Origin: Candidatus Limnocylindria bacterium
GTDB lineage: Bacteria > Chloroflexota > Limnocylindria > QHBO01
DNA: 61,805 bases
NCBI GenBank assembly: GCA_036004845.1
Contig: DASYRA010000003.1
Coordinates: 1-61,805 of the forward strand
Direction: 5' to 3'
Shown here: one piece after another, positions 1,782-39,270 of the stretch
Layout of the letters: every line of letters starts with the position of its first letter
Numbering within the stretch: the stretch's first letter is position 1
Translations under genes and position numbers: made by a program
Notes under the pieces: model-generated
Told to the model about the DNA's origin: nothing
What the model saw: the letters and a program-made list of their open reading frames with translations, nothing else
Databases searched by the model: none

Positions 1782-1858
1782 TGGTACCGCATACCGGATT
1801 CGAACCGGTGATCTCCGCCTTGAGAGGGCGGTGTCCTAGGCCTCTAGACGAATGCGGC
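1782..1858 (-). tRNA. tRNA-Glu: tRNA-Glu (anticodon CUC), CCA encoded
   Basis: The reverse complement folds by hand into a cloverleaf: acceptor GCCGCAT/ATGCGGT, anticodon stem CCGCC/GGCGG with loop CTCTCAA (anticodon CTC), T arm ACCGG-TTCGAAT-CCGGT, discriminator A, then CCA. The D arm GTCTAGAGGCCTAGGAC is Glu-like. Confidence 0.9.

Positions 1859-10582: not shown

Positions 10583-10586
<4 letters not shown>
8781..10586 (+). CDS. membrane-anchored coiled-coil protein with a Gln/Pro/Gly tandem repeat (DUF4175-like, unverified)
   Basis: 601 aa. TM helices VAAIALAAAIGGIALVQLAA, PWLMAGVAAAALVAWAIASL and GGILLAVLVVLVAW. A long Ala/Glu/Gln/Arg helical region is followed by GQPG/TQPG repeats. Its ATG shares one base with the previous TGA. 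Confidence 0.75.
9981..10232 (+). repeat. in-frame tandem repeat encoding (G/T)QPG(AS)-type units
   Basis: The 30-nt units 10062-10091 and 10092-10121 are 29/30 identical, and four 12-nt TQPG units follow (about 10149-10205). The peptide reads GQPQPGASGQPGSSGQPQPGASGQPGGQPGASGQPGGQPGASGQPGGQPGGQPGGQPGTQPGTQPGTQPGTQPGTGGQLGGGGG. Confidence 0.9.
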
Positions 10587-11608
<1,022 letters not shown>

Positions 11609-11614
11609 CCGGGG

Positions 11615-12532: not shown

Positions 12533-12578
12533 CTGCGGCGCAGCTACCCGGTGAGGGGGCGGGCGGGCGGCCCATCCC

Positions 12579-24762: not shown

Positions 24763-26075
24763 CCGGTCGAGCCCAAGAGGCCGCCGACTGGCAGTCGCTC
24801 CGGAGCGGCGTGCCGCCGGTCTGGGCCCGCTACACAGACCTCGTCGTCGAGCGTGGCGTCGGCTCCTGGATCGAGACGATCGACGGCGAGCGCTACCTCG
24901 ACTACACCTGCGGGATCGGAGTCACGAACACCGGGCACGCCCATCCTCGGGTGGCGGCAGCGATCGCCGAGCAGGCCGCCAGGATCATCCACGCCCAGCA
25001 GAACATCCTGTACCACAAGCCGGGCCTCGAGCTGCACGATCGGCTGCCGCGCACCTTCCCCGGCCTGGGCGATGGGGAGACGGCCGGGCTCTTCCTCTCG
25101 AACTCTGGGGCGGAGGCGATCGAGGCGTCGGTCAAGCTGGCGAAGTACGCCACCCGCCGGCCGGCGATCATCGCCTTCCGCGGCGGCTTCCACGGTCGCA
25201 CGCACGGGGCGATGGCGCTCACCAGCTCCGGGGTCAAGTACCGCGGCCACTTCGAGCCGCTCCTTGGCGGGGTCCACTTCGCGCCGTATCCGTACGTGCT
25301 TCGCAACCCAACCGGCCGCGACGCCCAGGCGGCCGTGGCGCACTCCCTGGCGGGGATCGAGGAGCTCTTCGCAACCGTCATCTACCCCGACGACGTGGCC
25401 GCCTTCCTCGTGGAGCCGATCCTGGGCGAGGGCGGCTACGTCGTCCCGCCGGACAGCTTCCTGCCCGCCCTGCGTGAGCTGGCCGACCGCCACGGCATCC
25501 TGCTCATCGCCGACGAGGTGCAGTCCGGGATGGGGCGCACCGGACGGATGTGGGCCACCGAGTGGTACGACGCGCGCCCGGACATCCTGGTCATGGCCAA
25601 GGGAATCGCCTCGGGGATGCCGCTGTCCGGCATCATGGCCCGCCGCGAGCTGCTGGATCGGTTTGGGCCCGGCTCACACGGCGGGACGTACGGCGGCAAC
25701 GCCGTCGCCTGCGCGGCGGCCGTGGCCACCCTCGACGTGATCGAGTCGGAGGGGCTGCTGGCCAACGCGGCACGACAGGGTGAGCGCCTGCTGGCCGGTC
25801 TCCGTGACGCGGCCGAGGGACACAGCTGCGTCGCCGAGGTGCGCGGGCGGGGCCTGATGATCGGGATCGAGCTCGCACAGGGACCGGAGCTGAAGCCGCG
25901 CCCGGACCTCGCCAAGGGGGTCCTGCGCGAGGCCCTCGATCGCAAGCTGCTGCTGCTCAGCTGTGGCACCCATGGGCAGGTGGTGCGGGTCATCCCGCCG
26001 CTGGTGACGACCGATGACGAGGTCGATATGGCGATCGGCGTGATCCGCGAGGCGCTCGCTGCGGTCGGCGCCTAG
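24759..26075 (+). CDS. class-III (omega-amino / GABA- or putrescine-type) aminotransferase
   Basis: 438 aa. SNSGAEAIEASVKLA, LLIADEVQSGMGRTG, ILVMAKGIASGMPLSG (PLP lysine). ATGA overlap with the permease gene. Confidence 0.9.
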   Translation: MTGRAQEAADWQSLRSGVPPVWARYTDLVVERGVGSWIETIDGERYLDYTCGIGVTNTGHAHPRVAAAIAEQAARIIHAQQNILYHKPGLELHDRLPRTFPGLGDGETAGLFLSNSGAEAIEASVKLAKYATRRPAIIAFRGGFHGRTHGAMALTSSGVKYRGHFEPLLGGVHFAPYPYVLRNPTGRDAQAAVAHSLAGIEELFATVIYPDDVAAFLVEPILGEGGYVVPPDSFLPALRELADRHGILLIADEVQSGMGRTGRMWATEWYDARPDILVMAKGIASGMPLSGIMARRELLDRFGPGSHGGTYGGNAVACAAAVATLDVIESEGLLANAARQGERLLAGLRDAAEGHSCVAEVRGRGLMIGIELAQGPELKPRPDLAKGVLREALDRKLLLLSCGTHGQVVRVIPPLVTTDDEVDMAIGVIREALAAVGA

Positions 26076-26578
26076 CCCTCGACCTCGGCTTCGGCCAGGC
26101 GTCGGTATCGCGACCCGAACCAAAGGAGCGGCTCGCCGCTCTCCTCGTAGCCGGCGGCCACGATCTCGCCGATGAAGATCGTGTGCGTGCCGGCCGCGTG
26201 CGACTCGTGCAGCCGGCAGTCGAAGAATGCGATCGCCCCATCCAGGATCGGCGAGCCGGTCTCCGCCTCGTGCCACGGCGCGTCGCAGAAGCGCTGCAGC
26301 TTGGCGGCCGTGGTCGGCAGGGCAAAGCAGTCGGCGATCGCGCGCTGCTCGGCACCGAGGACGCTGACCGCGAACGAGTGGCTGCCGACGATGGCGACAT
26401 GCGTCTCGCTGCCGCGGTTGATGCTGGCCATCAGCAGCGGCGGGTCGAGGCTGATCGAGGCGACGGCGTTGGCGGTCATCCCCGCCAGCAACGGCCCGTG
26501 CCGCGCGGCGACCACCGTCACGCCGGTGGCGAAGCGGCCCATCATCGCCCGCAGCCAGAGGCCGCGATCGTCGTCCAT
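26072..26578 (-). CDS. flavin reductase-like domain protein
   Basis: Start at MDDDRG (ATG 26576-26578). MMGRFATGVTVVAARHGPLLAGMTANAVASISLDPPLLMASINRGSETH. Confidence 0.8.
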   Translation of the reverse strand: MDDDRGLWLRAMMGRFATGVTVVAARHGPLLAGMTANAVASISLDPPLLMASINRGSETHVAIVGSHSFAVSVLGAEQRAIADCFALPTTAAKLQRFCDAPWHEAETGSPILDGAIAFFDCRLHESHAAGTHTIFIGEIVAAGYEESGEPLLWFGSRYRRLAEAEVEG

Positions 26579-26582
26579 CGGC

Positions 26583-26876
26583 TCAGCGGTAGCGCTCCAG
26601 CCGCTCGACGATGGCGTTCGCGACTGCCCAGTCCTCCTCGGTCGGCTGCTGGCCGCGGTGCAGGTGCACAAGTGGGACCGTGTTCCACGATGGACCGTCG
26701 ACCTGCGGAATGTGGGTGGCCAGGTCGCCCCGATCCAGGACCGCAACGATCGTCGCTCCCCGCTCGCCACCTCGCTCGATGGCCAGCTCCAGGGAATGCG
26801 CGAACTGCTCCGGCGGGCCGAACTCCTGGCCGATGCGCATCGCGATCAGCCCCGCGGTGGGTGGCGTCAGACCCAT
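26583..26876 (-). CDS. hypothetical protein (97 aa)
   Basis: MGLTPPTAGLIAMRIGQEFGPPEQFAHSLELAIERGG... GC3 is about 85% (hand count). There is a 4-nt gap to the flavin reductase gene and a 10-nt overlap with the upstream ORF. No family recognised. Confidence 0.5.
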   Translation of the reverse strand: MGLTPPTAGLIAMRIGQEFGPPEQFAHSLELAIERGGERGATIVAVLDRGDLATHIPQVDGPSWNTVPLVHLHRGQQPTEEDWAVANAIVERLERYR

Positions 26877-27244
26877 CCGAGGCTCCGGAACAGCCAGCCG
26901 AAGAAGGTGACGCTGCCGAGCACGACGAAGCCAACCGCCATGATCACGAGCGCGAAGCCGATGAGGTTGGCCCAAGCCGGCACGTTCGAGGCCTGCGGCC
27001 CGACCGAGCCCTGCGACAGCCAGATCGCCAGGGCGTCGCCATCGACCCGCATCTCGACGTCGCTGTCGAGCGGGACGATCACGACCCGATGCCGGTCGGC
27101 ACTCCCCGCTTCCACGGTGACGAGTGCCCTCGGCTGCTCGCCCTCGCGGACCAGCACGGCGTGGTTGCCGACCGCATTGGTCAACGGCCCAGCCTCGAGC
27201 GGGCCATTCGGGCCGAGCGGGAATGGGGCCTGGCTACCCTCCAT
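26867..27244 (-). CDS. hypothetical C-terminally membrane-anchored protein (125 aa)
   Basis: MEGSQAPFPLGPNGPLEAG... with a C-terminal hydrophobic helix WANLIGFALVIMAVGFVVLGSVTFFGWLF. No family recognised. Confidence 0.5.
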   Translation of the reverse strand: MEGSQAPFPLGPNGPLEAGPLTNAVGNHAVLVREGEQPRALVTVEAGSADRHRVVIVPLDSDVEMRVDGDALAIWLSQGSVGPQASNVPAWANLIGFALVIMAVGFVVLGSVTFFGWLFRSLGWV

Positions 27245-27323
27245 GCGCCGAGCATACCTGCCCTTGGCAGGACTTGGGGCGACGGCATACCCTTAGCGCC
27301 CATTCGAGAAGGGGAGGAGTCTC

Positions 27324-27875
27324 GTGCGCCCGACGCCCGCCATCCTGAGCCTGGTCGTGCTGCTCGCCGCCTGCGCGTCGTCACCCGGCGCATCGAACGC
27401 CGAGCCCTCGTCGGGAGCGGTCCCGTCGCAGGCCACCGAGTCGCATCCGGCGTCTGGCGAGCCGACCCCTGGAACCGACCTGACTGCCTGCGAGCTCGTC
27501 ACCGCTGGCGACATCGAGGCAGCCCTGTCGCTGGATCCCGGCACCGTCTCCGAGGGGAGGCTCGAGGAGCAGCCGACCGTCCTCGATCCGGCGACGAATG
27601 AATGCCGCTACCGCGACGACAGCTGGGGCGCCTTGATCATCCATGTGACGCCCACCGATGGCGTCAACACGTGGGACGCGCTCGCCGCCGTCTACAGTGG
27701 GCCGGCCGAGTCACTCAATGTGGGCGACGCGGGCCTCTGGTTCGAGGACGACGACCGCGGCTACTTCCTTAAAGGCTCCGTGATGCTCTTCCTGCAGTTT
27801 CAGTTCATCGCCGATGGCACGCCGTTCCGCGACCCTACCATCGCCCTGGGCGAGGCCGCCGTCGCCAAGATCTAG
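27324..27875 (+). CDS. lipoprotein of unknown function
   Basis: The GTG start is preceded by GGAGGAG. Signal/lipobox ILSLVVLLAACASS. Confidence 0.7.
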   Translation: MRPTPAILSLVVLLAACASSPGASNAEPSSGAVPSQATESHPASGEPTPGTDLTACELVTAGDIEAALSLDPGTVSEGRLEEQPTVLDPATNECRYRDDSWGALIIHVTPTDGVNTWDALAAVYSGPAESLNVGDAGLWFEDDDRGYFLKGSVMLFLQFQFIADGTPFRDPTIALGEAAVAKI

Positions 27876-28783
27876 GGCCGGAGCAGCCCCAGGGCGGGAG
27901 CGAGCCCTTCGATTGTCTCGGCGTTGATCGGGTCCAGCACGAGCTGGACGTGGGCGACACCCTCGGCCTCGAAACCGCGCAGGGTGGCCGCCAGCGTGTC
28001 CGGATCGCTCGGGATCGGCGTCACGCGGGCGTCCTTCATGGAGCCCAACGAGCGGCCGCCGGTGCCCGGGAAGGCGACCAGCAGGGCAATCGTGCGCTCC
28101 ACCTCCTGCGGGTCGCGCCCTGCTGTGCGGCATGCCGCATCGATCGTGTCGCGCAGGCCTCGGTAGCCGTCGATGCTGTTCCCGAACCAGGTGAACCAGG
28201 CGTTCCAGGCCTGCACCCACGGCAGGGTGATCGACAGCATCCGCTCCCCCATCGAGCCGACCATGAGCGGTGGTCCCTCGCCATGCTCGTGGCGAGGTCC
28301 GCGCGGCAGCAGCTCGCACTCCTGCAGCTCGAAGTACGTGCCTTGGAAGTCGCAGCGCCCATCGGCGAGGAGGGTGCGAATGATGGTGAAGGCCTCCTCG
28401 AAGCGGCTGACCCGATGATCGAACGGGAAGCCGTAGGCCAGGTATTCCGCCTCGTTCCAGCCCGCGCCGAGGCCCAGGATCAGGCGCCCGCCGCTGACCT
28501 CGTCCACGGTGGCGGCCTGCTTGGCGAGCATGGCGGGGTTGTGGAAGCTGGCCGAGGCAACCAGCGGCCCGATCTGCACCCGTTCGGTCACGGCCGCGAT
28601 GGCGGCGAGCGTCGTCCAGGCTTCCCATGGGCCCCGCGGCGGCCGGTCATCACCGCGATACAGGAGATGGTCGCCGACCCAGATCGAATCGAGCCCGATC
28701 GCCTCGGCGGTGCGGGCCATCTCGCGCAGGTCCGGCCAGCGCGCCACCCACTCGACCTCGGGCAGCTGGACGCCGACCTTCAT
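27872..28783 (-). CDS. LLM-class (luciferase-like) F420-dependent oxidoreductase
   Basis: 303 aa. MKVGVQLP..GLDSIWVGDHLL.., GGRLILGLGAGWNEAEYLAYGFPFDHRVSRFEE. Its ATG shares one base with the TGA of the VWA gene. Confidence 0.88.
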   Translation of the reverse strand: MKVGVQLPEVEWVARWPDLREMARTAEAIGLDSIWVGDHLLYRGDDRPPRGPWEAWTTLAAIAAVTERVQIGPLVASASFHNPAMLAKQAATVDEVSGGRLILGLGAGWNEAEYLAYGFPFDHRVSRFEEAFTIIRTLLADGRCDFQGTYFELQECELLPRGPRHEHGEGPPLMVGSMGERMLSITLPWVQAWNAWFTWFGNSIDGYRGLRDTIDAACRTAGRDPQEVERTIALLVAFPGTGGRSLGSMKDARVTPIPSDPDTLAATLRGFEAEGVAHVQLVLDPINAETIEGLAPALGLLRP

Positions 28784-30816
28784 CAGGCGACGCGCTTGCG
28801 CTTCTTGCTGACGTAGTCGACCAGGACGTACTCGCCAAGGTGCTCGGGCTCCACGTAGAAAGCTCGACCGCGGTTGATGCGGCTCATCAGGTCGACGAAC
28901 TCGGAGAGGTAGCGGGACCGCTCCAGCATGAAGGTGTTGATCACGATCCCCTCCCGCGTCGCGCGTCCGACCTCGCGCAGCGTCGACTGCATCGTGCGCA
29001 TGGTGGGCGGGTACGCGAACTCGACCTGCCCGTTGGCGATGTGCGCCGTCGGCTCGCCGTCGGTGATCACCACGATCTCCTTGTTTCCGCCGCTGCGCCG
29101 GCCGAGCAGCTGGCGCGCGATGATCAGCGCGTGCTGGAGGTTGGTCCCGTACTCGAACTCGTACGGTGAGAGGGTGGCGATCGCCTCGGGCTTGATCTGG
29201 CGCGCGTAGTACGCGAAGCCGACGACGTACAGCCGATCGCGCGGGTACTTGGTGTGAATGAGGGTGTGCAGCGCCATCGCCACCCGCTTGGCGGCGGTCG
29301 AGCAGCCCCGCAGCAGCATCGATCGGCTCATGTCCAGGAGGAGGACCGTCGAGCTGACGGTGGTCTCCTCGGACCGATGCACCTCGAAGTCGCCGGGCGC
29401 GATGCGCACCGGGGTGCCCGGGCCATTGCGCGCCATGGCGTTGAAGAGGGTGCGGTTGAGATCGACTGCGAACGGGTCGCCGTGCTCGAACGGCTTAGTC
29501 TCGTCGGTGAGCTCCCCGCCGCTGCCCGAGGTTGGCAGCGCGTGGCCCCCGAGCGACTCCCGCCGCAGGCGGCTGAAGATGTCCGTCAGCGCGCGCATCC
29601 CGAGCTTGCGGGCCGCGCGTGGCGTCAGCTCGAGCCGATCGTCGCCGCGTTCCAGGTAGCCGGCCTCCTCGAGGGCGCGGGTCAGCGCGCGGAGCTGCTC
29701 GAGGTCTCCGGTCGCCTCGTCGCCACCGAGCGCCTGGAGCGCCTGGGCGTCGATCTGCTCCAGCGAGTCGGGGTCGCGCGCACCGAGCAGCTCCTCCTCC
29801 ATGGCGTCGAAGCGCTGCTGCCGGTCGATGGCGGCGAGCGCCTCCGGAAGCCCGAGCGGCTCGTCGCCACTGAACGGATATGGCTCGCCGAACGGGGAGT
29901 CGGGTCGCAGGGCCTGCAGCGCGCCGGCCAGTCGGGCCATGTCCCAGCGCAGGCGGTCGTCGCGCAACAGCTCATCCATCATCTCCTGGAGCTCGGCCCG
30001 CATCTCCGGACTCAGCGACGACATCAGCGAGGCCATCTGCGAGGCCTGTCGATGGAGATGGTCGATCAGCTGGTCGACGGTCTCGATCCCGGGTGGGAAG
30101 TAATGCCCGTGGCGGAGCATGAAGCTCGCGAAATCGGCGCGCGTGTCGGAGCCCGCCGCGTGCTTCTCGAGGAGCTTGTTGAGGTCGCGCACCATCGCCC
30201 GGACCCCATCGAGATCCTCGGGCGAGATGCCGGCGACGCCCTCCTTCAGCCCCTGGAAGTAGGTCTGGAGCAGCTGCTGGCGAAGCTCGTCGGTGAGCGC
30301 GTTGAATGCGTCGCGCGCATCGACGTCCATGAACTCGTAGTCGCGCAGAGCGGCAAGCCGCCCGGCCAGGTCGGCCGGAAGGGCATCCAGGCGGTCACGC
30401 CGCTGCTGGGCGGTGCGACCCAGCACCTGCTCCGCCATCCGGGCCTGGTCCTGCGCTGGGCCCGGAGCAGCGTCGAGGGCTCGCTGCTCGGCCTCATGAA
30501 CGCGCCGCGCGATCCCCGCCCGCTCCTGCTCGACAATCTGGTCCAGTCGCTCGCCCAGGTCGTCAAGCATCCCGTCAAGGTTCGCCCGTGACAGCTCCTC
30601 CGCCCGACGAGCACGGAGCTGCTCCACGATGCGCCGCAGCCCCGGCACGTCTCCCCCGCGCGTGCCCCGCATGCCGCGCTGCATCAATCGCTGGAGAGCG
30701 CGCCGGATGTCGCCCTCCGCCAGGATGTCGTCCGAGAGCGCCTCCAGGACGTCATCCGCGTCGAAGGGAGGCAGGCTCTGGCTGCCGTCCCAGTGCGAGT
30801 AGCGGTAGATGCTCAT
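28783..30816 (-). CDS. 677-aa protein with a long helical N-terminal region and a C-terminal VWA domain (ChlD/CoxE-like)
   Basis: Start at MSIYRYSHWDGSQ (ATG 30814-30816). MIDAS motif VLLLDMSRSM ... IVVITDGEPT. Confidence 0.85.
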   Translation of the reverse strand: MSIYRYSHWDGSQSLPPFDADDVLEALSDDILAEGDIRRALQRLMQRGMRGTRGGDVPGLRRIVEQLRARRAEELSRANLDGMLDDLGERLDQIVEQERAGIARRVHEAEQRALDAAPGPAQDQARMAEQVLGRTAQQRRDRLDALPADLAGRLAALRDYEFMDVDARDAFNALTDELRQQLLQTYFQGLKEGVAGISPEDLDGVRAMVRDLNKLLEKHAAGSDTRADFASFMLRHGHYFPPGIETVDQLIDHLHRQASQMASLMSSLSPEMRAELQEMMDELLRDDRLRWDMARLAGALQALRPDSPFGEPYPFSGDEPLGLPEALAAIDRQQRFDAMEEELLGARDPDSLEQIDAQALQALGGDEATGDLEQLRALTRALEEAGYLERGDDRLELTPRAARKLGMRALTDIFSRLRRESLGGHALPTSGSGGELTDETKPFEHGDPFAVDLNRTLFNAMARNGPGTPVRIAPGDFEVHRSEETTVSSTVLLLDMSRSMLLRGCSTAAKRVAMALHTLIHTKYPRDRLYVVGFAYYARQIKPEAIATLSPYEFEYGTNLQHALIIARQLLGRRSGGNKEIVVITDGEPTAHIANGQVEFAYPPTMRTMQSTLREVGRATREGIVINTFMLERSRYLSEFVDLMSRINRGRAFYVEPEHLGEYVLVDYVSKKRKRVA

Positions 30817-30826
30817 CGTCTCGTCA

Positions 30827-31300
30827 TCATCGCAGGCGCCGTGCGGCCATACGCAGACCACGTGCCGCGGCGCGGACCAGCCCCCGCCCGGCCCAGAGGC
30901 CGACCCGACCGCCGCGCCGCAGCAGCCAGGCAGCGCCGATGCGGACGGTCCCGAGGTCGTAATCGAGGTCCTCCGCGGTCAGGCCCGACGCTTCGAGGTG
31001 TGCCTGTCGATCGGCAAACGGGAGGCCGCGGAGCGCGAAGCGCAGTCCCAGCAGGGCAACAGCCGCGTCGTCGAGCTGTCCGGCGAACGGGATGATCCCC
31101 GCCACCGGGTCGACGGGCGAGACGAGGTACGCGGCGGCGGCGGCTACCGCGGTGCGGCGTGGACGGCTCAGGCGCGGATCACGGGCGAGCCGCCAGGCAA
31201 GACGCCCGTAGCCGGGGAGGCGGCGCACGAGGGCGATGAAGCGCCCCCGCGGGAACGCGTCATCGGTCCAACCCTTCGACGTGGCGCCGCGTCGGGGCAT
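30827..31300 (-). CDS. DUF1232 (YkvA-like) membrane protein
   Basis: 157 aa. YLVSPVDPVAGIIPFAGQLDDAAVALLGLRFAL matches the DUF1232 core. Confidence 0.75.
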   Translation of the reverse strand: MPRRGATSKGWTDDAFPRGRFIALVRRLPGYGRLAWRLARDPRLSRPRRTAVAAAAAYLVSPVDPVAGIIPFAGQLDDAAVALLGLRFALRGLPFADRQAHLEASGLTAEDLDYDLGTVRIGAAWLLRRGGRVGLWAGRGLVRAAARGLRMAARRLR

Positions 31301-31303
31301 CGG

Positions 31304-32719
31304 CTATCGCGCGTACCGCACGCCGCCGCCCCGGCGCTCCTTGTTCAGCCGCCGGTTGAGATGGAGCCCCTCCAGCACGAACTCGACCCCGCTGGCAACG
31401 CCGGCCGGTGACTCGCCGAGGTCGAGCCGCCCCACCGCGCGGCTCAGCTCCGGAAGCTCCGCGACCGTTCGCTGCAGGAGGTCCGAAGCCACCGATTCGC
31501 CGACCTCGACCTCCGCACCGGCCTCGAAGCGCTCGACCAGGCCGACCAGCTCCGAGAGTGAGAAGTGCCGGTTGAAGACATTGACGACGGCGCGCTGGAC
31601 CAGCTTCTCGATCACCTTCTCCTCGCGCGTCTCGTCGCCGAGCGTCTCCAGCTCGATCTTGCCGGCGGTCGAGGCCACGATCGCGCCGAGGTCGCTGACG
31701 CGGGGCGCGGCGATCGGCTCGCCCAGGCGAACGGCGCGCTTGAGGGCCGCCGCCACCAATGTCTCGTGGTTGGCGATGGTGACGCGCACGCTCACCCCGG
31801 AGCGCTGGCTCACCTCCGACGAGCGTCGGGCCAGCTGCGACAGCTCGGCCACGATCTCCTTCATGAAGGACGGCACCTGGACCGGGACCGACGCCGCCGT
31901 CTCGTCGTCGAAGGCGAGCCACTCGGCCTCCATGATCGCGATCTCGGTCTCCGGATCCTCGGGGTAGTGGGTCCGGATCTGGGCGCCGAATCGGTCCTTG
32001 AGCGGCGTGATGATGCGTCCCCGGCTGGTGTAGTCCTCCGGGTTGGCGGAGGCCACCACGAACAGGTCCAGGCTGAGGCGGACCTTGTAACCCCGGATCT
32101 GGACGTCGCGCTCCTCCATCAGGTTGAGGAGGCCCACCTGGATCCGCTCGGCCAGGTCGGGCAGCTCGTTGAGGGCGAAGATGCCGCGGTTCGTGCGCGG
32201 CAGGAGGCCGTAGTGGATGGTCAGCTCGTCGGAGAGGTAGCGCCCCTCCGCCACCTTGACCGGATCGACCTCGCCCACCAGGTCGGCGATTGTGATGTCG
32301 GGCGTCGCCAGCTTCTCCCCATAGCGATCCGCGGCCGCCACCCAGCCGACCGGTGTCGCATCTCCCAGCTCCGCCACCAGCGCGCGCGCAAACGGGCTCA
32401 CCGGCCGCAGTGGGTCGTCGTGGAGCTCCGCACCGGCCACGACCGGCATCCACTCGTCGAGGAGTCCCACCAGTGAGCGCGCGATGCGGCTCTTGGCCTG
32501 GCCCCGCTCACCGAGCAGGATGATGTCCTGGCCCGCCAGGATGGCGTTCTCGACCTGCGGCAGGACGGTCTCGTCGTAGCCGATGATCCCGGGCAGGAGC
32601 GACTCCCCGCGGCGCAAGCGATTAACGAGGTTGGCGCGCATCTCCTCTTTGACGCTGCGGGGCCGATAGCCACCGGCGCGCAGCTCGCCCAGGGTGCCGA
32701 TGGTCGGCCGCTCGGTCAT
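31304..32719 (-). CDS. BchI/ChlI-like (Mg-chelatase-type) AAA+ ATPase
   Basis: Start at MTERPTIG (ATG 32717-32719). P-loop GERGQAKS (32489-32512). NRGIFALNELPDL. VVASANPEDYTSRGRIITPLKDRFG. Confidence 0.9.
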   Translation of the reverse strand: MTERPTIGTLGELRAGGYRPRSVKEEMRANLVNRLRRGESLLPGIIGYDETVLPQVENAILAGQDIILLGERGQAKSRIARSLVGLLDEWMPVVAGAELHDDPLRPVSPFARALVAELGDATPVGWVAAADRYGEKLATPDITIADLVGEVDPVKVAEGRYLSDELTIHYGLLPRTNRGIFALNELPDLAERIQVGLLNLMEERDVQIRGYKVRLSLDLFVVASANPEDYTSRGRIITPLKDRFGAQIRTHYPEDPETEIAIMEAEWLAFDDETAASVPVQVPSFMKEIVAELSQLARRSSEVSQRSGVSVRVTIANHETLVAAALKRAVRLGEPIAAPRVSDLGAIVASTAGKIELETLGDETREEKVIEKLVQRAVVNVFNRHFSLSELVGLVERFEAGAEVEVGESVASDLLQRTVAELPELSRAVGRLDLGESPAGVASGVEFVLEGLHLNRRLNKERRGGGVRYAR

Positions 32720-33636
32720 GCGGTGGCTCCTTCGGGTACGGACGGAAAGTGCGTCAGCGCGGACGCCACCGCGGCCGGATCGCACACGCCGCGATCCGCG
32801 AGCGCCGCCAGGTACTCCGAGCGCGCCGCCAGCTCCGCCTCCAGCGCGTCCGCCCCGAGGCCGAGGCTGGCGGCCAGCACAGCGTACGCCGCGATGTCGT
32901 GGACGAGCGGGCGGGTGGAGCGCCCCCCGTCACCCGCCAGCAGCGGCGGCTCCGGCTCACGCTGCGCACCGGTCAGGCTCGGCGAGCGGCCACCCTCGAG
33001 AGCCGCCAGTCGGACGGGGGCGAGGCCCCCCGCGCCATTCAGCCGCAGGTGCCACGCCTCCTCGACACGACGGTACATGCCAGCCGGCGTGCGGTAGGCG
33101 GAGTACTGCAGGTAGATCGTCAGGCCGGCGAGGTCGGCGTCACGTGCGCCGAGCTGATCGCGCAGGAGGGCAATCGCCTCGTCGAGCGAGTCGGCGTGCA
33201 TCGTGGCTCCCATGCCGTAGCCACGGCCCGCCAGCTCCAGGGCTCCGCGCGCATTGCGGCCCCAGACGTAGATCGGCAGGTGATCGCTCATCTCGTTGAC
33301 AAGCAGGTAGCCGCGATCCGGGCCGACCTCATCGGTCCAGTCGAAGTCACCCCGCCAGCCACGGAGGAAGATCCCCACCGTGCCGCGCGGCAGGAAGTCG
33401 ACGAGTGCGGAGAGGGTGGTCGTCTTGCCGGCCATCGGCGCCTCCGAGGCGAGCATGACGCTGCCTCGGCGGCTGGTCACCGCCCAGAGGGTCGCCATCA
33501 GGCGCGCGTCGAGGGCGCCACCGCCCACGATCTCGACGGCACTCATTGGCCGCGGCGGGCTCCAGTGGTAGCCCCACCAGCCCTCCGGGAAGCGGCTGTA
33601 CCACGCTTCCAGGCTGGCGTCGGACGAGGGCTCCAT
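32716..33636 (-). CDS. divergent T2SS/T4SS-E (VirB11/CpaF)-like P-loop NTPase, ATPase domain only
   Basis: SEAPMAGKTT (33418-33447), YLLVNEMSD, GRGYGMGATMHADSLDEAIALL and LTIYLQYSAYRTPAGMYRRVEE parallel the Walker A, Walker B, His-box and tail of secretion ATPases. Start is set at the ATG at 33634-33636, where GC3 rises. The track ORF extends to the GTG at 33783. Confidence 0.7.
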   Translation of the reverse strand: MEPSSDASLEAWYSRFPEGWWGYHWSPPRPMSAVEIVGGGALDARLMATLWAVTSRRGSVMLASEAPMAGKTTTLSALVDFLPRGTVGIFLRGWRGDFDWTDEVGPDRGYLLVNEMSDHLPIYVWGRNARGALELAGRGYGMGATMHADSLDEAIALLRDQLGARDADLAGLTIYLQYSAYRTPAGMYRRVEEAWHLRLNGAGGLAPVRLAALEGGRSPSLTGAQREPEPPLLAGDGGRSTRPLVHDIAAYAVLAASLGLGADALEAELAARSEYLAALADRGVCDPAAVASALTHFPSVPEGATA

Positions 33637-33825
33637 GGTCGCGGCCACGGTACGCGGGGCAGGCGCACGACGCAACCGCCGCGCATCGGGGCCCTGGCAG
33701 GACTTCCGTACCAGGCCTCGATGGTCCATCGCCGTTGATTGGAAGCACCATTCGGCCAGATCGGTGATGTCTGGTGGAGTCACTGGTACTTGTCAAGTCC
33801 TGGCCACCGTGCATGTCATGCAGGG

Positions 33826-34512
33826 ATGACCAATCTGGCGCGCAGGTCGAGGCCGGGCGACGGAGGCGGAGAGGCGTACCGCTCGTTCTCGATTGCGGTC
33901 GACCAGATGCGGCGCGGCGAGCAGGTGGTCGCGCTCATCAACCCGGATGCCCGGCCTCCCGACGCGCCGGCATCGGGCATCTGGCTGAGTGCCCGCCTCT
34001 CGATCAGCGAGCTGCCGCGGGTGCTCCTGCCGCGCTGCGATGATCGCTGTCGAGACGAGCCGCATGACGCGCACGCCTTCGTGGTGCTCGCCGATCTCGC
34101 CCTCGATGTGGCCGAGCCGCGACGGACGTCGTGGTGGGAATCGTGGAACGACACGCTGCAGCGCGATCTGCGCGCCTCCCGCGTGTGGTACGCCGGCTCC
34201 CCCGCGCTCCCCGACGTCGCCGTAGCGCGCCAGCTGCGAGCAGGAACGCGCCTGCGGCGCCTGGCCGCGACCGACCCCTACTGGGTCCACTACGACACCA
34301 TGGACCAGGAGGTCCTGTTCCGGATCGAGTCCGGCCCTCACGAGGGCGACGCGGTGATCGCCGTCTCGTTCGGCCTGTCGCCGCTGCTGCCCGGCCTGGC
34401 CGGGGCGCTGATCGCGCCGGACCACCCGCCCGTCCGAGATCCCGACGTCGGGACGCGACTCCTGGCCGTGGGCTGGGCAACCGTCGAGCGCGGCCTCCCG
34501 TTCGAGGGCTGA
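33826..34512 (+). CDS. hypothetical protein (228 aa)
   Basis: MTNLARRSRPGDGGGEAYRSFSIAVDQMRRGEQVVALINPD... High GC3 throughout. No family recognised. Divergent from the ATPase operon. Confidence 0.55.
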   Translation: MTNLARRSRPGDGGGEAYRSFSIAVDQMRRGEQVVALINPDARPPDAPASGIWLSARLSISELPRVLLPRCDDRCRDEPHDAHAFVVLADLALDVAEPRRTSWWESWNDTLQRDLRASRVWYAGSPALPDVAVARQLRAGTRLRRLAATDPYWVHYDTMDQEVLFRIESGPHEGDAVIAVSFGLSPLLPGLAGALIAPDHPPVRDPDVGTRLLAVGWATVERGLPFEG

Positions 34513-34533
34513 CTCGAGTCGATCGTCGGTATC

Positions 34534-35142
34534 ATGCGCGCCATGACCGACGAGGAGATGCCCGCCCCGCGCCCGATGATCCGTGGAGAGCGAGTCTGGC
34601 TGCGGCCCACCGAGCCCTCCGACATCATCGAGGACGTCCCCTACTCGGGCGATATCGAGATCGGTCACTTCGGCGGCGGCAAGACGCCGTGGAGCCGCGC
34701 CTCGGCCGAGCGCTTCTCCACGGAGTTCCAGGCCCAGATCGGCGAGACGAGCTACCCGTACACGATCTGCCTGCTCGGTGAGCAGCGGGGCATCGGCGCG
34801 ATCTTTCTCCGCAACGTGGACAAGGTCAACGGCAGCGCGATCGTCGGCATCTTCATCAGCGACCGCCGCTACCTGGGCAAGGGGTACGGCACCGATGCGC
34901 TCAATGCCCTGGTCGACTTCGGCTTCGGCGAGCTGCGGCTCGAGCGGATCGAGCTGGAGGTGTTCGACTACAACCTGCGTGCCATCCGCTCGTACGAGAA
35001 GGCCGGCTTCAAGACCGATGCGATCCTGCGGCGCTCGCGATTCCACCGCGGCGCGCATCACGACGTGCACTTGATGTCGATCCTGCAGGGCGACTGGCAG
35101 GCGCTGCCCCGCAAGCGCAGCTGGGAGCTGTCCGAGGTCTAG
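34534..35142 (+). CDS. GNAT-family N-acetyltransferase (RimJ/RimL-like)
   Basis: ERVWLRPTEPSDI.., YLGKGYGTDALNALVDFGFGELRLERIELEVFDYNLRAIRSYEKAGFK. Confidence 0.88.
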   Translation: MRAMTDEEMPAPRPMIRGERVWLRPTEPSDIIEDVPYSGDIEIGHFGGGKTPWSRASAERFSTEFQAQIGETSYPYTICLLGEQRGIGAIFLRNVDKVNGSAIVGIFISDRRYLGKGYGTDALNALVDFGFGELRLERIELEVFDYNLRAIRSYEKAGFKTDAILRRSRFHRGAHHDVHLMSILQGDWQALPRKRSWELSEV

Positions 35143-36473
35143 CTCGCGCGGGGAAGCCCAATCAGGAATGTGGTTCCATCGGGGCCGGTTCGCTCGACGC
35201 CGATGCGACCGCCGTTGGCCGCCAGCAGCTCCCGCGCAATGGTCAGGCCGATGCCGCTGCCACTCCGCGGCTCACCCGCGCCGCGCGCCTGGTCCGCCCG
35301 GTAGAAGCGCTCGAAGACGTGGGCCCGGTCCTCGGGAGCGATCCCCGGCCCCGCGTCGGTGACCCTGACCAGCGCCTCGGTCGCCGCCGTCTCGACGCCC
35401 ACCTGTACGGTCGCTCCCCCGGGGGAGTGCTGGGCCGCATTGGCGAGGACGTTGCGGAGCGCGCGGCCGACCTGCGTGGGATCGACCTCCACCTTCAGCG
35501 AGCTGGGGGCCGGATCAACCACGATGCCAACCCCCTGCTGCCGGAAGAGCGGCTCGATGGCGCGCTGGACCTCTCCCAGCAGCTCGCTCAGCGACATCAC
35601 CCGCGGCCGGCGCTGGAGCACCCCGGACTCGGCGTCGACCAGCTCTCCGAGCTGCACGATCACGCCCGACAGCGCGCCCGCCGCGGCCCGGGCGCGATCG
35701 AGCTGCTCACGGTCGGCGGGCACCACGCCGTCGACCATCGCCTGCAGCTGCGACTCGAGCACGGTGGCCGGGGTCGCCAAATCGTGGGCCATGTCGCTGG
35801 CCGCGCGGCGGCGCAGCATCTCGGATCGCTGGACTCGCTCGGCCATCGCGTTGAAGGCGCCCGCCAGCTCCCGCGACTCGCGGTCGGGACCGCCCTGGGC
35901 TCGGGCGCTGAGGTCGCCATGCCCCAACCGCCGCGCGGCGGCGGCCACCCCCTGGAGGGGACGGGTCAGGCGCGACGAGAGGAGGAGCGCGATCATCCCG
36001 ACCGCCACGATCGCCAGCAGGCCGGCGACCAGCAGCGTCACGTTGAAGACGCGCAGGAAGCCCCGGTCGGCGCGCGGCACGTCGATCAGGAGGCTCGCGT
36101 CCGACCCGGGGATCGGCTCGGAGATCGTCTCGGTTGCAACCCCCGGCGGCAGCCTTCCGACGTCCACCAGCGGCTCGCCGTCGGCGCCGACCAGCTGGAC
36201 GCGCCCGTGCATCGCGTTGGCGACCCGACGCAGCACGATCTCGACCCCGTGCTTCGCGCGCGGCCCCTCCAGGTCGACCGCTCCGATCGCCCCGGCCACG
36301 ACCGTGATGCGGTCCCGCTCGGCGGCGCTCAGCTCCTCCTCCAGCGACCCGCTGACGATCCGGTTGACGGCAAGGCCGGCCACCAGGAGGACCGCCAGCA
36401 CGGCGAGGGAAAGCATCAGGGCCAGCCGAAGGCCGAGCGGCTGGCCGCGCGCCACGTCGTCGCTCTCGGTCAC
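35139..36473 (-). CDS. sensor histidine kinase (2 TM, HAMP, HisKA, HATPase_c)
   Basis: H-box ASDMAHDLATPATVL, N-box LRNVLANAAQHSP, G1 DAGPGI, G2 GSGIGLTIAREL. Confidence 0.9.
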   Translation of the reverse strand: MTESDDVARGQPLGLRLALMLSLAVLAVLLVAGLAVNRIVSGSLEEELSAAERDRITVVAGAIGAVDLEGPRAKHGVEIVLRRVANAMHGRVQLVGADGEPLVDVGRLPPGVATETISEPIPGSDASLLIDVPRADRGFLRVFNVTLLVAGLLAIVAVGMIALLLSSRLTRPLQGVAAAARRLGHGDLSARAQGGPDRESRELAGAFNAMAERVQRSEMLRRRAASDMAHDLATPATVLESQLQAMVDGVVPADREQLDRARAAAGALSGVIVQLGELVDAESGVLQRRPRVMSLSELLGEVQRAIEPLFRQQGVGIVVDPAPSSLKVEVDPTQVGRALRNVLANAAQHSPGGATVQVGVETAATEALVRVTDAGPGIAPEDRAHVFERFYRADQARGAGEPRSGSGIGLTIARELLAANGGRIGVERTGPDGTTFLIGLPRAS

Positions 36474-37183
36474 GCTGGGTCCTTCGTCGCCACCAGCCGG
36501 TAGCCGGTGCTGGGGATCGTCTCGATCAGCCAGGGATCGCCGGCGTCGTCGCCCAGCTTCCGTCGCAGGTTGGCGACATGGACGTCGACGACGCGCTCGT
36601 AGACCTCGTCGGGACGCCGCGCGACGGCCTCCAGCAGCTGCTCGCGCGCCAGGACGGCACCCGGGCGGCGCGCCAGCGCGACCAGGAGGGCGGCCTCGCC
36701 GGGCGTCAGGCGTCCTCCCTCCCCGTCCGACAGCGTGTATCGCCGCGAGGCGGGATCGAGGACCAGGCGGCCGGCCCCCAGCGAGATGATCTCGTCGCCC
36801 TCCTTGGCCACGCCCGCGCGCGAGCGCCGCAGGATCGCCGCCACGCGAGCGGTCAGCTCGTGCGGGTTGAAGGGCTTGGCGAGGTAGTCATCGGCCCCCA
36901 GGCGAAGCCCGGCGATGCGCTCGGCATCGGAGCGCTTCGCGCTGGTGATCAGGATCGGAACGTCCGCCTCCTCGCGCAGTGCCTCGAGCACCGCCTCGCC
37001 CTGCATCCCCGGCAGCATCAGGTCAAGGACCACCAGGTCCGCGCCATCGGCCGCGAAGGCGGCCAGGGCGGCCGCGCCATCCCCGGCGTCGCTCACCACG
37101 TAGCCGGCCCGCTCCAGGTACAGCCGCAGAAGACCGCGCAGCTGCGGCTCATCCTCCACGATCAGGATCCTGGCGCGCCCCAT
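36470..37183 (-). CDS. OmpR/PhoB-family response regulator
   Basis: ILIVEDEP..DLVVLDLMLPG..AKP receiver domain. C-terminal winged helix VDVHVANLRRKL...TIPSTGYRL. Confidence 0.92.
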   Translation of the reverse strand: MGRARILIVEDEPQLRGLLRLYLERAGYVVSDAGDGAAALAAFAADGADLVVLDLMLPGMQGEAVLEALREEADVPILITSAKRSDAERIAGLRLGADDYLAKPFNPHELTARVAAILRRSRAGVAKEGDEIISLGAGRLVLDPASRRYTLSDGEGGRLTPGEAALLVALARRPGAVLAREQLLEAVARRPDEVYERVVDVHVANLRRKLGDDAGDPWLIETIPSTGYRLVATKDPA

Positions 37184-38280: not shown

Positions 38281-39270
38281 GTGACGAAGATCGGCTACGC
38301 CGCCATGCTGGAGCAGTTCCACCCGACCGACCTGCTCGAGTGGTGCCCGCAGGCGGAGGCCGCGGGATTCTCAGCCGGATTCATGGTCAGCGAGCACTTC
38401 CAGCCGTGGACCCCGCAGCAGGGCAACGCCGCGTTCGCCTGGACGTTCATGGGGGCCCTGGGAGAGCGCACCACGCTGCCCATCGGCCTCGCCGTCACGG
38501 CCCCGGGCTTCCGCTTCCACCCCGCGGTGATCGCGCATGCGGCGGCCACCATGGGGGCGATGTATCCGGGCCGCTTCTGGCTCGGGCTGGGTGCCGGCGA
38601 GGCGCTCAACGAGCACGTCATCGGTGGCAGATGGCCCGAGATCGGTGTTCGCAGCCACATGCTCTTCGAAGCGATCGAGATCATCAACAAGCTTTTCAGC
38701 GGCGAGGTGGTGCGGCACTCGGGCGAGTACTTCACGCTTGAGTCGGCCAAGCTCTACACGCGACCCGAGACCCCGGTCCCGATCTACGTGGCCACTGCCG
38801 GACCGATCAACGCCAAGCGCACCGGACGCCATGCCGACGGGATGATCACGGTCGGGGCGGCGGACGAGAAGATCAAGATGCTGTGGGCCAAGTTCGGGGA
38901 AGGGGCCCTGGCGGCGGGGCGGGACCCGCACTCGATGCCGAAGCTGCTCCAGATCCACGTCTCCTGGGCCGAGACAGGGGCGGTGGCCGAGGCGAACGCC
39001 GTCCGCGAGTGGCCGAACGGCGGCATGCCGTTCCCGAAGCAGGACGTTCGCCATCCGGAGGACTTCGCCAACATGGCGATGCTCGTTCGGCCGGAGCACT
39101 TCACGGACCGGGTCCTGATCTCTGCCGACCTAGACGAGCACGCCGCCCACATCCAGCGGTTCGTGGACATGGGCTTCGACGAGGTCCACGTCCACAACGT
39201 GGGTCGCAACCAGGCGGAGTTCATCGCCGCCTTCGGCGAGAAGGTCCTGCCGCAGCTCCGCCTGGGCTAG
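38281..39270 (+). CDS. F420-dependent oxidoreductase, glucose-6-phosphate dehydrogenase family (LLM class)
   Basis: The GTG start gives MTKIGYAAMLEQFHPTDLLEWCPQAEAAGFSAGFMVSEHFQPWTPQQGNAAFAW, typical of this family. Confidence 0.88.
   Translation: MTKIGYAAMLEQFHPTDLLEWCPQAEAAGFSAGFMVSEHFQPWTPQQGNAAFAWTFMGALGERTTLPIGLAVTAPGFRFHPAVIAHAAATMGAMYPGRFWLGLGAGEALNEHVIGGRWPEIGVRSHMLFEAIEIINKLFSGEVVRHSGEYFTLESAKLYTRPETPVPIYVATAGPINAKRTGRHADGMITVGAADEKIKMLWAKFGEGALAAGRDPHSMPKLLQIHVSWAETGAVAEANAVREWPNGGMPFPKQDVRHPEDFANMAMLVRPEHFTDRVLISADLDEHAAHIQRFVDMGFDEVHVHNVGRNQAEFIAAFGEKVLPQLRLG

Follow-up and report, generated by a model that had tools for sequence, protein, structure and literature searches.

The window, i.e., the whole stretch of 61,805 nucleotides analysed in this work, harbors five packed minus-strand open reading frames between positions 27872 and 33636, whose coordinates were confirmed by an ORF check of the sequence. 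The genes and the features discussed below are the following:

32716–33636, minus strand: FlaI/GspE-like NTPase, 306 aa; lineage-specific accessory gene
31304–32719, minus strand: predicted ChlI-like AAA+ ATPase of the Rv0958 type, 471 aa; core gene 1
32489–32512, minus strand: Walker A of the AAA+ protein (GERGQAKS, residues 70–77)
32165–32170, minus strand: Walker B of the AAA+ protein (Asn184-Glu185)
30827–31300, minus strand: DUF1232 protein, 157 aa; sporadic insert between the two core genes
28783–30816, minus strand: Rv0959-family VWA/MIDAS protein, 677 aa; core gene 2
29662–30816, minus strand: helical N-terminal region of the VWA protein (residues 1–385)
29356–29661, minus strand: "third" domain of the VWA protein (residues 386–487)
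29467–29550, minus strand: candidate pore-inserting "finger" loop of the VWA protein (residues 423–450)
28801–29355, minus strand: VWA domain (residues 488–672)
29320–29334, minus strand: MIDAS DxSxS (residues 495–499)
27872–28783, minus strand: luciferase-like (LLM) oxidoreductase, 303 aa; downstream neighbor of the VWA gene

The packing described in the initial annotation was found again at each junction. The NTPase-like and AAA+ genes overlap in the stop-start sequence ATGA (32716–32719); the TAG of the AAA+ gene is separated by 3 nt from the ATG of the DUF1232 gene, whose TGA in turn lies 10 nt from the ATG of the VWA gene at 30816; lastly, the VWA and LLM genes meet in TGATG at 28783, the A of TGA being common to the LLM start codon. 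The lengths of the homologues agree with the chosen starts (306 aa for the NTPase-like protein, 463–478 aa for the AAA+ protein, and 677 aa for the VWA protein). Four of the ORFs have a GC3 of about 0.85–0.91, i.e., a high-GC coding pattern; the DUF1232 ORF falls outside this scoring and was called by a second gene-calling scheme. The cluster is bordered upstream by a divergent plus-strand gene (33739–34512) and downstream by a convergent plus-strand gene (27324–27875), and we infer that the five genes form a single transcript. The gene calls, motifs, and domain assignments proposed earlier were likewise upheld.

The motif likeness of the AAA+ protein to BchI/ChlI, pointed out in the initial annotation, was corroborated: its best relative in the PDB is ChlI (8osf, 5.5e-08), and it matches the TIGR02442 (1.1e-09) and BchI-ChlI (2.1e-08) profiles, both well under the family cut-offs. 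In Pfam, it is matched weakly by AAA_5, Sigma54_activat, and Mg_chelatase. Conservation among 37 homologues extends over Walker A as well as over sensor 1 and the Arg-finger region, the latter two represented by SANPEDY...PLKDRFG. The Walker B of the family carries an Asn in place of the usual Asp; thus, its ATPase activity is to be regarded as predicted.

Similarly, the 677-aa protein does possess a MIDAS-bearing VWA domain, with a VWA_2 match (6.4e-09) at residues 490–588 and MIDAS residues (D495, S497, S499, T558, and D586) that are invariant in sets of 42 and 51 diverse homologues. Homologues 82–96% identical to it carry PF27532 (Mb0984_helical) and PF27098 (Rv0959_3rd), the whole architecture being Mb0984_helical, Rv0959_3rd, and VWA_2; this confirmed the link to the mycobacterial Rv0958/Rv0959 pair suggested in the initial annotation. 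The AF2 model of the protein (pLDDT 80.8) retrieved as top Foldseek matches the VWA domain of NorD bound to NorQ (9qh8, 9qhe, and 9qhg; E ~2e-6) and the MIDAS domain of Rea1 (6qt8 and 8ql1), with alignments covering 275–316 columns versus ~200 for a plain VWA core. Just before this core lies the loop of residues 423–450, invariant or nearly so in 51 homologues (G423, H425, G431, K441, Y443, G446, D447, P448, and F449); its residues 423–436 have a pLDDT below 50 within an otherwise confident model. By analogy, this loop may represent a NorD-like finger.

The survey of homologue neighborhoods, which the initial annotation had proposed, covered 80 species-representative genomes. The only partner of the VWA gene kept across phyla is the AAA+ gene, so that these two represent the only unit of the cluster conserved across phyla. 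In most genomes it lies upstream of the VWA gene. Of 61 loci outside the close clade, 34 have it directly next to the VWA gene in the same orientation, and in another 11 it is located 0.6–8 kb upstream. Among the 49 distant loci whose upstream sequence spans 7 kb or more, 13 have no AAA+ gene nearby, including those of Dehalococcoidia, where the VWA gene lies beside pyrR-pyrB-pyrC-carAB; hence, the two genes are not always physically linked. Stand-alone pairs among unrelated or opposite-strand genes also occur (L083 and L164–L166). The loci come from Chloroflexota, Dormibacterota, Rokubacteria, Acidimicrobiia, Rubrobacter, and Acidobacteriota, and the family comprises 3972 representative clusters at E ≤ 1e-3 (662 at E ≤ 1e-30), with a median identity across phyla of 63% for the AAA+ protein and 45% for the VWA protein.

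What might such a pair do? One possibility is that it represents the ATPase/VWA motor of a class I metal chelatase, inserting Mg or Co into a tetrapyrrole, with the ChlH/CobN-type subunit encoded elsewhere in the genome. The BchI/ChlI-BchD/ChlD-BchH, CobS-CobT-CobN, and TIGR02442 (putative cobaltochelatase) systems do contain the proteins closest in sequence to the AAA+ module and share the same logic of a VWA/MIDAS partner; the VWA protein itself matches the C-terminal part of TIGR02442, and one transposon that appeared in a screen for B12 resistance lay 49 bp upstream of the M. marinum orthologue (PMC11237697). However, the scores remain far under the family thresholds (37 versus 779 bits and 34 versus 467 bits), and the N-terminus of the VWA partner is helical, not AAA-like as in ChlD/BchD. 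In agreement with the initial annotation, no ChlH/CobN was found in the window, nor was any other gene of at least 950 aa, and no gene of that size recurs near the pair in the 80 genomes; a cobalamin riboswitch or other RNA element was not found in the window either. We consider this possibility very unlikely.

The other three genes have a much narrower distribution. The DUF1232 gene (Pfam match 3.7e-10) is found between the AAA+ and VWA genes in some close relatives (L003, L006, L011, L091, L093, L142, L144, L149, and L152), is absent in L002 and L004, is replaced by a hexapeptide acetyltransferase gene in L001, and beyond the close clade occurs in 0 of 71 loci; it is therefore not a conserved partner.

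The LLM oxidoreductase (Bac_luciferase, 1.7e-49; 192.9 bits against TIGR03560, whose cut-off is 231.4) is probably of the F420 type. It had been proposed as the coupled client of the unit, in which case the five genes would encode one machine, with the AAA+/VWA motor maturing or remodeling the LLM enzyme and the NTPase and DUF1232 proteins acting as helpers. The TGATG overlap speaks for this, as does the presence of an LLM orthologue downstream of the VWA gene in 9/9 close-clade genomes, at a distance of 2 bp to ~3 kb, and in many metagenome contigs. Moreover, L007–L010 retain the LLM gene next to the VWA gene though neither an AAA+ nor an NTPase gene was found upstream (with 7 kb or more of upstream sequence in three of these four loci), and one Rokubacteria locus as well as some Acidimicrobiia have LLM genes 1–4 kb from the VWA gene. 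On the other hand, outside the close clade the first 1 kb downstream of the VWA gene contained an LLM gene in 0/60 loci, and a sensitive HMM detected only eight LLM genes in the flanks of the 71 loci. Even within the clade the gap varies from 0 to ~3 kb and is filled by different, unrelated genes (APH, hydrolase, and AlkZ in L001; TetR and ABC genes in L002), with ~1.8 kb between VWA and LLM in L100, L106, L116, and L118; L121, L122, and L135 retain NTPase-LLM without the AAA+/VWA pair in between. Furthermore, LLM paralogues are dense in these genomes, a second one lying in the window itself (38281–39270), and the AAA+/VWA pair is much better conserved than the LLM gene. A single five-gene machine thus appears unlikely; the LLM and VWA genes may nevertheless have a clade-specific functional tie within the Limnocylindria-type clade, where they remain neighbors even in L007–L010.

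As for the 306-aa NTPase, its Pfam search gave no match, including none to T2SSE, and its sequence similarity is weak (FlaI 1.2e-05, 24 bits; GspE 2oap 1.3e-03). Nevertheless, the earlier "secretion-ATPase-like" call was substantiated by structure: the AF2 model (pLDDT 59.7, pTM 0.64) matched 2oap and 4ihq in Foldseek (E ~5e-10, TMq 0.54), confirming the FlaI/GspE likeness. With FlaI, archaeal GspE, and PilT it shares the NTPase fold, Walker A (G70-K71-T72-T73), the Walker B glutamate (Walker-B-like N114-E115), and a His-box-like motif (T145-M146-H147), all conserved among homologues; unlike them, it corresponds only to the C-terminal ATPase domain and lacks the N-terminal one, and five copies are without the P-loop half, the conserved part being the C-terminal half. 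No platform, pilin, or archaellin genes were found near it. Of the 80 genome loci, 20 have the gene upstream of the AAA+ gene; 19 of these are labeled Chloroflexota and one is a MAG labeled Verrucomicrobiia. It is a real but Chloroflexota-restricted companion of the AAA+/VWA pair, an accessory whose role is possibly regulatory.

An NTPase of this kind could also act as the sensor or effector of a conflict or anti-phage system of the MoxR-VWA type, ternary systems of this kind being known (PMC7159879); a weak bpMoxR match (2.3e-03) was obtained as well. Against this, PADLOC gave no meaningful matches, no effector domains were found, no composition anomaly was seen, and sequence conservation is high, with housekeeping-like contexts across phyla. 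This reading of the cluster seems extremely improbable.

The five-gene unit is, in conclusion, a lineage-specific arrangement, in which the DUF1232 and LLM genes are lineage-specific neighbors, packed closely because the genome is locally compact and not because they share a mechanism. What is conserved as a functional unit is likely to be the AAA+ protein (31304–32719) together with the VWA/MIDAS adaptor (28783–30816), a NorQD-like remodeling module of the Rv0958/Rv0959 family. A finger-in-pore and twisting model has been proposed for NorQD (PMC13036017). By analogy with NorQ-NorD, CbbQ-CbbO, ChlI-ChlD, and Rea1, the AAA+ protein would form a hexameric ring, on which the VWA domain would dock, probably by inserting loop 423–450 into the pore; ATP-driven movements of the ring might then be transmitted by the long helical N-terminal region of the VWA protein, while the invariant MIDAS would grip an acidic residue of the client, which would be remodeled or loaded with a cofactor. 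The client would be encoded outside the unit. Given the strong conservation of the pair across phyla in shifting gene contexts, a cellular component of broad conservation is a likelier client than the neighboring LLM enzyme.

As initially suggested, the pair falls outside any characterized AAA+/VWA system. Its closest counterparts are M. tuberculosis Rv0958/Rv0959, the former being annotated as a "possible magnesium chelatase", and M. smegmatis MSMEG_5512/MSMEG_5511: the Pfam architecture of the VWA protein is the same (the comparison being by domains), and a ChlI-like AAA+ gene of ~460–470 aa adjoins the VWA gene, as here. The host here is not an actinobacterium but a member of the Limnocylindria group of Chloroflexota, and the pair is embedded among FlaI-like NTPase, DUF1232, and LLM genes. 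MSMEG_5512 ("magnesium chelatase") and MSMEG_5511 ("von Willebrand factor, type A") bear consecutive tags, and both are part of the ClpC1 interactome (PMC10433963). The family is widespread, and no functional study of the Rv0958/Rv0959 pair was found in the searched literature.

NorQ-NorD inserts iron into nitric oxide reductase, and CbbQ-CbbO is related to it. Both likewise combine an AAA+ ring with a VWA/MIDAS partner composed of an N-terminal domain, a linker, and a VWA domain; NorD in its complexes with NorQ is the best structural match of the VWA model, and loop 423–450 could take the part of the NorD finger. Compared with NorQ, the AAA+ protein is not of the MoxR type (AAA_3, 21.2 bits with a cut-off of 27), is closer to ChlI, and has a C-terminal extension of 140 aa and the Walker B Asn; compared with NorD/CbbO, the VWA protein differs in its N-terminal 385 residues, which form an unrelated helical region. 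The neighborhood contains no nor or cbb client genes. Lastly, Rea1/Midasin is a eukaryotic AAA+ protein that bears a MIDAS domain and remodels pre-60S ribosomes. It is one giant polypeptide with six AAA modules and acts on UBL-domain clients, but the best structural matches of the VWA model include its MIDAS-domain fold together with the extension, and the principle is alike: an AAA+ ring working through a MIDAS domain.

All five minus-strand ORFs claimed in the initial annotation are present as described; their products are the following:

27872-28783 (-), LLM oxidoreductase
28783-30816 (-), 677-aa VWA protein
30827-31300 (-), DUF1232 protein
31304-32719 (-), AAA+ protein (471 aa)
32716-33636 (-), 306-aa NTPase-like protein

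Four of the five ORFs show a GC3 of 0.85-0.91, which is the expected coding signature in a window whose DNA is about 70% GC, and the DUF1232 ORF was also recovered by a second gene-calling scheme. Reading the junctions from the sequence revealed an ATGA overlap between the NTPase-like and AAA+ genes, gaps of 3 nt and 10 nt ahead of the DUF1232 and VWA genes, respectively, and a TGATG overlap joining the VWA stop to the LLM start, all as reported; moreover, the proposed starts agree with the lengths of the homologues (306 aa, 463-478 aa, and 677 aa). The cluster is bordered by a divergent plus-strand gene upstream and a convergent plus-strand gene downstream. According to this layout, a single transcript for the five genes is plausible. 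The scan for promoter and terminator consensus sequences between 27200 and 34600 gave no more matches than expected by chance and no usable signal, and is thus uninformative on transcript boundaries. The Rfam scan of the whole window did not retrieve any riboswitch upstream of the cluster; the sole match at the gathering threshold is a tRNA gene at 1785-1858 (-).

Just upstream of the cluster lie a two-component system (35139-37183, -) and, beside it, two plus-strand genes (33739-35142):

33739-34512 (+), 257-aa ORF without a Pfam match
34534-35142 (+), GNAT acetyltransferase
35139-36473 (-), HAMP histidine kinase
36470-37183 (-), response regulator

The two-component system and the GNAT gene are syntenic in three of the related loci (L002-L004).

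The conservation of the five genes was then checked in a species scan retaining one genome per species, which yielded 80 loci from Chloroflexota (several classes), Dormibacterota, Rokubacteria, Acidimicrobiia, Rubrobacter, Acidobacteriota, and others. The ORFs of these loci were searched with the five window proteins, and our own gene calls and clusters were also made; a first clustering of raw ORFs was spoiled by high-GC shadow ORFs, and a GC3-based gene call, with occasional errors (e.g., at 26072-27296 of the window), was used instead. Nine species genomes with a VWA identity of 78-95% constitute the close clade, while the VWA proteins of the distant loci share 40-56% identity with that of the window.

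The AAA+ gene, which in the window lies directly upstream of the VWA gene on the same strand, is co-oriented and adjacent in 34 of the 61 distant loci with enough upstream sequence, and it is located 0.6-8 kb upstream in another 11 of them; no AAA+ gene was found within at least 7 kb in 13 out of 49 distant loci. None of the 71 distant loci harbors a DUF1232 gene, and none of 60 has an LLM gene within 1 kb downstream. Probing the flanks of the 71 distant loci with a sensitive LLM HMM retrieved eight LLM genes, none of which was both adjacent and co-oriented. In four Pfam-annotated loci (L083, L164, L165, and L166), the AAA+/VWA pair stands alone between unrelated or opposite-strand genes. Hence, the five genes, proposed at first to be one functional unit, represent a lineage-specific arrangement; the association of the AAA+ and VWA genes is the only one kept across phyla.

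The neighbors of the pair vary by lineage; in Acidimicrobiia, for instance, they form a whiB / FTCD / tatA / ECF-sigma block (part of these neighbor annotations were made by eye). In six Dehalococcoidia loci (L042, L045, L062, L065, L072, and L076), no AAA+ gene occurs within 8 kb of the VWA gene, which is flanked by a cysteine-hydrolase-like gene and by pyrR-pyrB-pyrC-carA-carB-like genes (by eye). The M. tuberculosis pair adjoins purN-purH. The repeated nearness of the VWA gene, or of the pair, to nucleotide-biosynthesis genes may be a coincidence.

The LLM protein is a clear luciferase-like oxidoreductase (Bac_luciferase, 1.7e-49, 169 bits), whose best F420-type subfamily, TIGR03560, scores 192.9 bits versus a cut-off of 231.4. 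In the close clade, its orthologue lies downstream of the VWA gene in all nine genomes, with a spacing ranging from 2 bp to about 850 bp. In other relatives, the region between the VWA and LLM genes embeds unrelated inserted genes: it contains APH, hydrolase, and AlkZ genes in L001 and inserted TetR and ABC transporter genes in L002, and it spans about 1.8 kb in L100, L106, L116, and L118. The DUF1232 gene (domain match 3.7e-10) is found between the AAA+ and VWA genes in some close relatives only; it is missing from L002 and L004, and in L001 its position is occupied by a hexapeptide-repeat acetyltransferase gene. Partial arrangements also exist. Four genomes (L007-L010) harbor VWA-LLM, and their upstream sequence (at least 7 kb in three of them and about 4.7 kb in L008) yielded neither an AAA+ nor an NTPase gene; four contigs (L120, L124, L131, and L141) harbor NTPase-AAA+ with no VWA gene downstream; and in three metagenome contigs (L121, L122, and L135) the LLM gene comes immediately after the NTPase gene, the AAA+ and VWA genes being absent between them. 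The tblastx comparison of L120, L124, and L141 with L007-L010 did not reveal any shared flanks.

Since the locus is plastic and genes have been inserted among close relatives, the LLM gene most plausibly persists because synteny is shared within a young clade in which LLM paralogues are numerous. A functional tie between the LLM enzyme and the pair, specific to this clade, is possible. That the LLM enzyme is the client of the pair, as the initial annotation suggested, is unlikely in view of the 60 distant loci without an adjacent LLM gene.

This genome region is, moreover, dense in LLM-type genes: a second luciferase-like oxidoreductase is encoded at 38281-39270 (+; 6.1e-51), at a distance of 4.6 kb on the upstream side of the cluster. 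On the downstream side, 1.1 kb past the LLM gene, there is a flavin reductase gene (26072-26770, -; 6.2e-43), and in close relatives a flavin reductase gene likewise follows the LLM gene (cluster c11).

The 306-aa protein did not match any Pfam family, and its alignment with the FlaI profile (24.3 bits over 57 residues) did not reach the cut-off of 550. Its AF2 model, of moderate confidence (pLDDT 59.7, pTM 0.64), retrieved with Foldseek the archaeal GspE (2oap) and FlaI (4ihq) over nearly the whole length (E ~5e-10, TMq 0.54). The protein corresponds to the C-terminal ATPase domain of FlaI/GspE only, whose N-terminal domain is absent. The alignments revealed a conserved Walker A GKT, a Walker-B-like Asn-Glu, and a His-box-like TMH; no platform or pilin gene is present near the gene, whose neighbors in the window are unrelated genes.

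A metagenome scan with the NTPase alignment retrieved almost only close relatives; the distant view comes from an HMM search of the genome loci. In 20 of these 80 loci, the HMM, built from diverse copies, detected an NTPase-like gene ahead of the AAA+ gene; 19 of the 20 are labeled Chloroflexota, the exception being L020, a MAG labeled Verrucomicrobiia. The identity of these genes with the copy in the window is as low as about 34%. Three Chloroflexia-type loci harbor two extra co-oriented genes between the NTPase-like and AAA+ genes, spanning the following positions:

L019, 3671-6373, co-oriented
L020, 2378-6043, co-oriented
L030, 2695-6262, co-oriented

One of them codes for a protein of about 900-950 aa with an N-terminal adenylate-cyclase-like motif and the other for a VOC/glyoxalase-like protein of about 265 aa (both assigned by eye). 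In L015, L026, L033, L037, and L050, the NTPase-like gene is recognizable in its C-terminal half only, the half with the Walker A/P-loop being lost or unrecognizable. In L001 (a 2.2-Mb contig), it is split into pieces of 232 aa and 64 aa (5075-5978 and 7433-7963), and is probably frameshifted or a pseudogene. The phylum labels (19 out of 20), together with the lost P-loop halves, indicate that the NTPase-like gene is a genuine accessory restricted to one phylum and that its conservation concerns a part other than the ATPase site. The loss of Walker A in five loci, in turn, suggests that ATP binding may be dispensable for the role of this protein with the pair. This Chloroflexota-specific FlaI-like accessory is the most original detail of the locus.

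As for the pair itself, the 677-aa protein carries at its C-terminus a VWA domain with a complete MIDAS motif (DxSxS...T...D), whose residues D495, S497, S499, T558, and D586 do not vary in either of two independent alignments built from diverse homologues. The source names borne by close homologues assign the window to Candidatus Limnocylindria (Chloroflexota), and not to an actinobacterium. According to the precomputed Pfam annotation, every homologue listed, including proteins of the same length with 93-96% identity, harbors Mb0984_helical (PF27532), Rv0959_3rd (PF27098), and VWA_2; the window protein itself was assigned VWA_2 only, with a Pfam set that does not include the PF27532 and PF27098 models. 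The presence of these two domains in the homologues implies that the tie to the mycobacterial Rv0958/Rv0959 proposed in the initial annotation is correct at the family level. The pair is therefore assigned to the Rv0958/Rv0959 family on the basis of the Pfam family names and of the annotation of MSMEG_5512 and MSMEG_5511 in the literature. Overall, the initial interpretation is partly supported: it stands for this family link, and is not supported for the LLM enzyme as client.

The family of the 677-aa protein is large, numbering 3972 representative clusters at a threshold of E<=1e-3 and 662 at the stricter E<=1e-30. The median identity of the VWA proteins across phyla is 45%. Probing the PDB sequences with the protein and with its family profile retrieved generic VWA matches only. 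The model built from a diverse alignment (pLDDT 80.8) consists of long helices (residues 20-385), a small alpha/beta 'third' domain (about 386-480), and the VWA domain (488-672). The stretch 423-449 is invariant or nearly so (G423, H425, G431, K441, Y443, G446, D447, P448, and F449), and the loop 423-436 has a pLDDT below 50. The top structural matches are the NorD VWA domains in the NorQ-NorD cryo-EM complexes (9qh8, 9qhe, 9qhg, and 9qh6; E ~2e-6), and the MIDAS domain of Rea1/MDN1 (6qt8 and 8ql1) is also among the best; the alignments to NorD and Rea1 extend past the bare VWA core.

The AAA+ protein gives weak Pfam matches to AAA_5, Sigma54_activat, AAA_3, and Mg_chelatase, and has a median identity across phyla of 63%. 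The multialignment of 37 family members revealed that the Walker A GERGQAK[ST], the sensor-1 SANPEDY, and PLKDRFG are essentially invariant, and that the Walker B holds an invariant Asn-Glu (FALNE) in place of the usual Asp-Glu:

32165-32170 (-), Asn-Glu of the AAA+ Walker B (residues 184-185), aligned with ADE of the MoxR encoded in the window

The family spans thousands of clusters in Actinomycetota (including M. tuberculosis Rv0958/Rv0959), Chloroflexota, Rokubacteria, Dormibacterota, and others, with no client or phenotype assigned so far. The literature retrieved on Rv0958/Rv0959 and their orthologues consists of entries in screens and proteomics lists, and did not include any functional study. 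After cross-linking, the M. smegmatis MSMEG_5512 protein was purified along with the RNA polymerase complex, and its association with DNA was not detected (PMC7092591); the ClpC1 interactome contains both MSMEG_5512 and MSMEG_5511 (PMC10433963); MSMEG_5511 is lower in a pafBC mutant (PMC5656591); a B12-resistance screen retrieved a transposon upstream of mmar_4541 (PMC11237697); and a host-QTL TnSeq table lists Rv0959 (PMC10468300).

In NorQD, a finger of the VWA domain enters the AAA+ pore, the C-terminus of the partner touches the ring, and an ATP-driven rotation stretches the linker, so that the client is remodeled; the authors presume that this mode is general to AAA+/VWA pairs (PMC13036017). 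The pair belongs to a catalogued, functionally uncharacterized AAA+/VWA family and, by analogy, most likely acts on some client in a NorQD-like manner. The VWA loop 423-450 would be the candidate finger entering the AAA+ pore, the MIDAS site would grip the client, and the helical N-terminal region of the VWA protein would act as a lever. The client is probably conserved, given that the pair is strongly conserved across phyla while its contexts change.

The same data could be read differently, i.e., the pair might be the bacterial counterpart of Rea1/Midasin, remodeling a large and universally conserved assembly (such as RNA polymerase or a ribosomal particle) instead of maturing a metalloenzyme, with a stripped-down FlaI-like NTPase recruited as a third subunit in Chloroflexota. 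The unusually high cross-phylum conservation in changing gene contexts, the resemblance of the VWA fold to the Rea1 MIDAS domain, the recovery of MSMEG_5512 with the RNA polymerase complex (PMC7092591), and the occurrence of both mycobacterial proteins in the ClpC1 interactome (PMC10433963) are indirect hints in its favor; we consider it doubtful, and the NorQD-like reading is preferred.

Since the AAA+ and VWA genes alone remain associated and the LLM gene is a local neighbor, the search for the client shifts from operon partners to conserved cell components. The invariant MIDAS, the candidate pore finger, the Walker B Asn, and the Chloroflexota-specific FlaI-like accessory provide experimental handles. 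The main value of these data lies in sharpening the planning of experiments on a family including functionally uncharacterized M. tuberculosis genes, for which M. smegmatis is a tractable relative.

Concerning the known systems, the PADLOC scan of the five proteins did not retrieve anything meaningful, and the reading as a recognized defense system was thus dropped. The nearest profile relatives of the AAA+ protein are ChlI/BchI and a putative cobaltochelatase family, and its best PDB relative is ChlI (5.5e-08). A Mg-/Co-chelatase was rejected on the defining tests, the profile scores being far under the cut-offs: the AAA+ protein reaches neither the BchI-ChlI equivalog TIGR02030 (33.7 bits, cut-off 466.95) nor the Pfam Mg_chelatase (17.1 bits, cut-off 20.3). 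BchD/ChlD have an AAA-like domain at the N-terminus, connected through a linker to a VWA domain, whereas the N-terminal 385 residues of the 677-aa protein are modeled as long helices; the latter thus has no counterpart of the AAA-like part of ChlD, and it does not match TIGR02031 (D subunit). In agreement with the initial annotation, no ChlH/BchH/CobN-like large subunit is encoded within the window, and no gene of at least 950 aa recurs near the pair in the 80 related loci; a copy elsewhere in the genome is possible.

A strict MoxR-type system was also ruled out, the match to the Pfam AAA_3 (MoxR) being under the cut-off (21.2 bits versus 27), and the AAA+ protein shares 26% identity over 182 residues with the canonical MoxR of the window. 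The latter belongs to a separate MoxR-DUF58-BatA-VWA operon (10583-17446, +), upstream of which lie an ABC transporter and a DUF4350 gene (4218-8781):

10583-11608 (+), MoxR (AAA_3, 3e-63, 212 bits)
11615-12532 (+), DUF58
12579-14549 (+), BatA + VWA_2
14387-17446 (+), 1019-aa VWA + GATase1_like protein

In addition to the Rv0958/Rv0959-type pair, this genome thus harbors a MoxR/VWA system of the classical kind. The MoxR-type systems (NorQD, CbbQO, and RavA-ViaA) have a VWA partner with an intact MIDAS, a feature that they have in common with the 677-aa protein.
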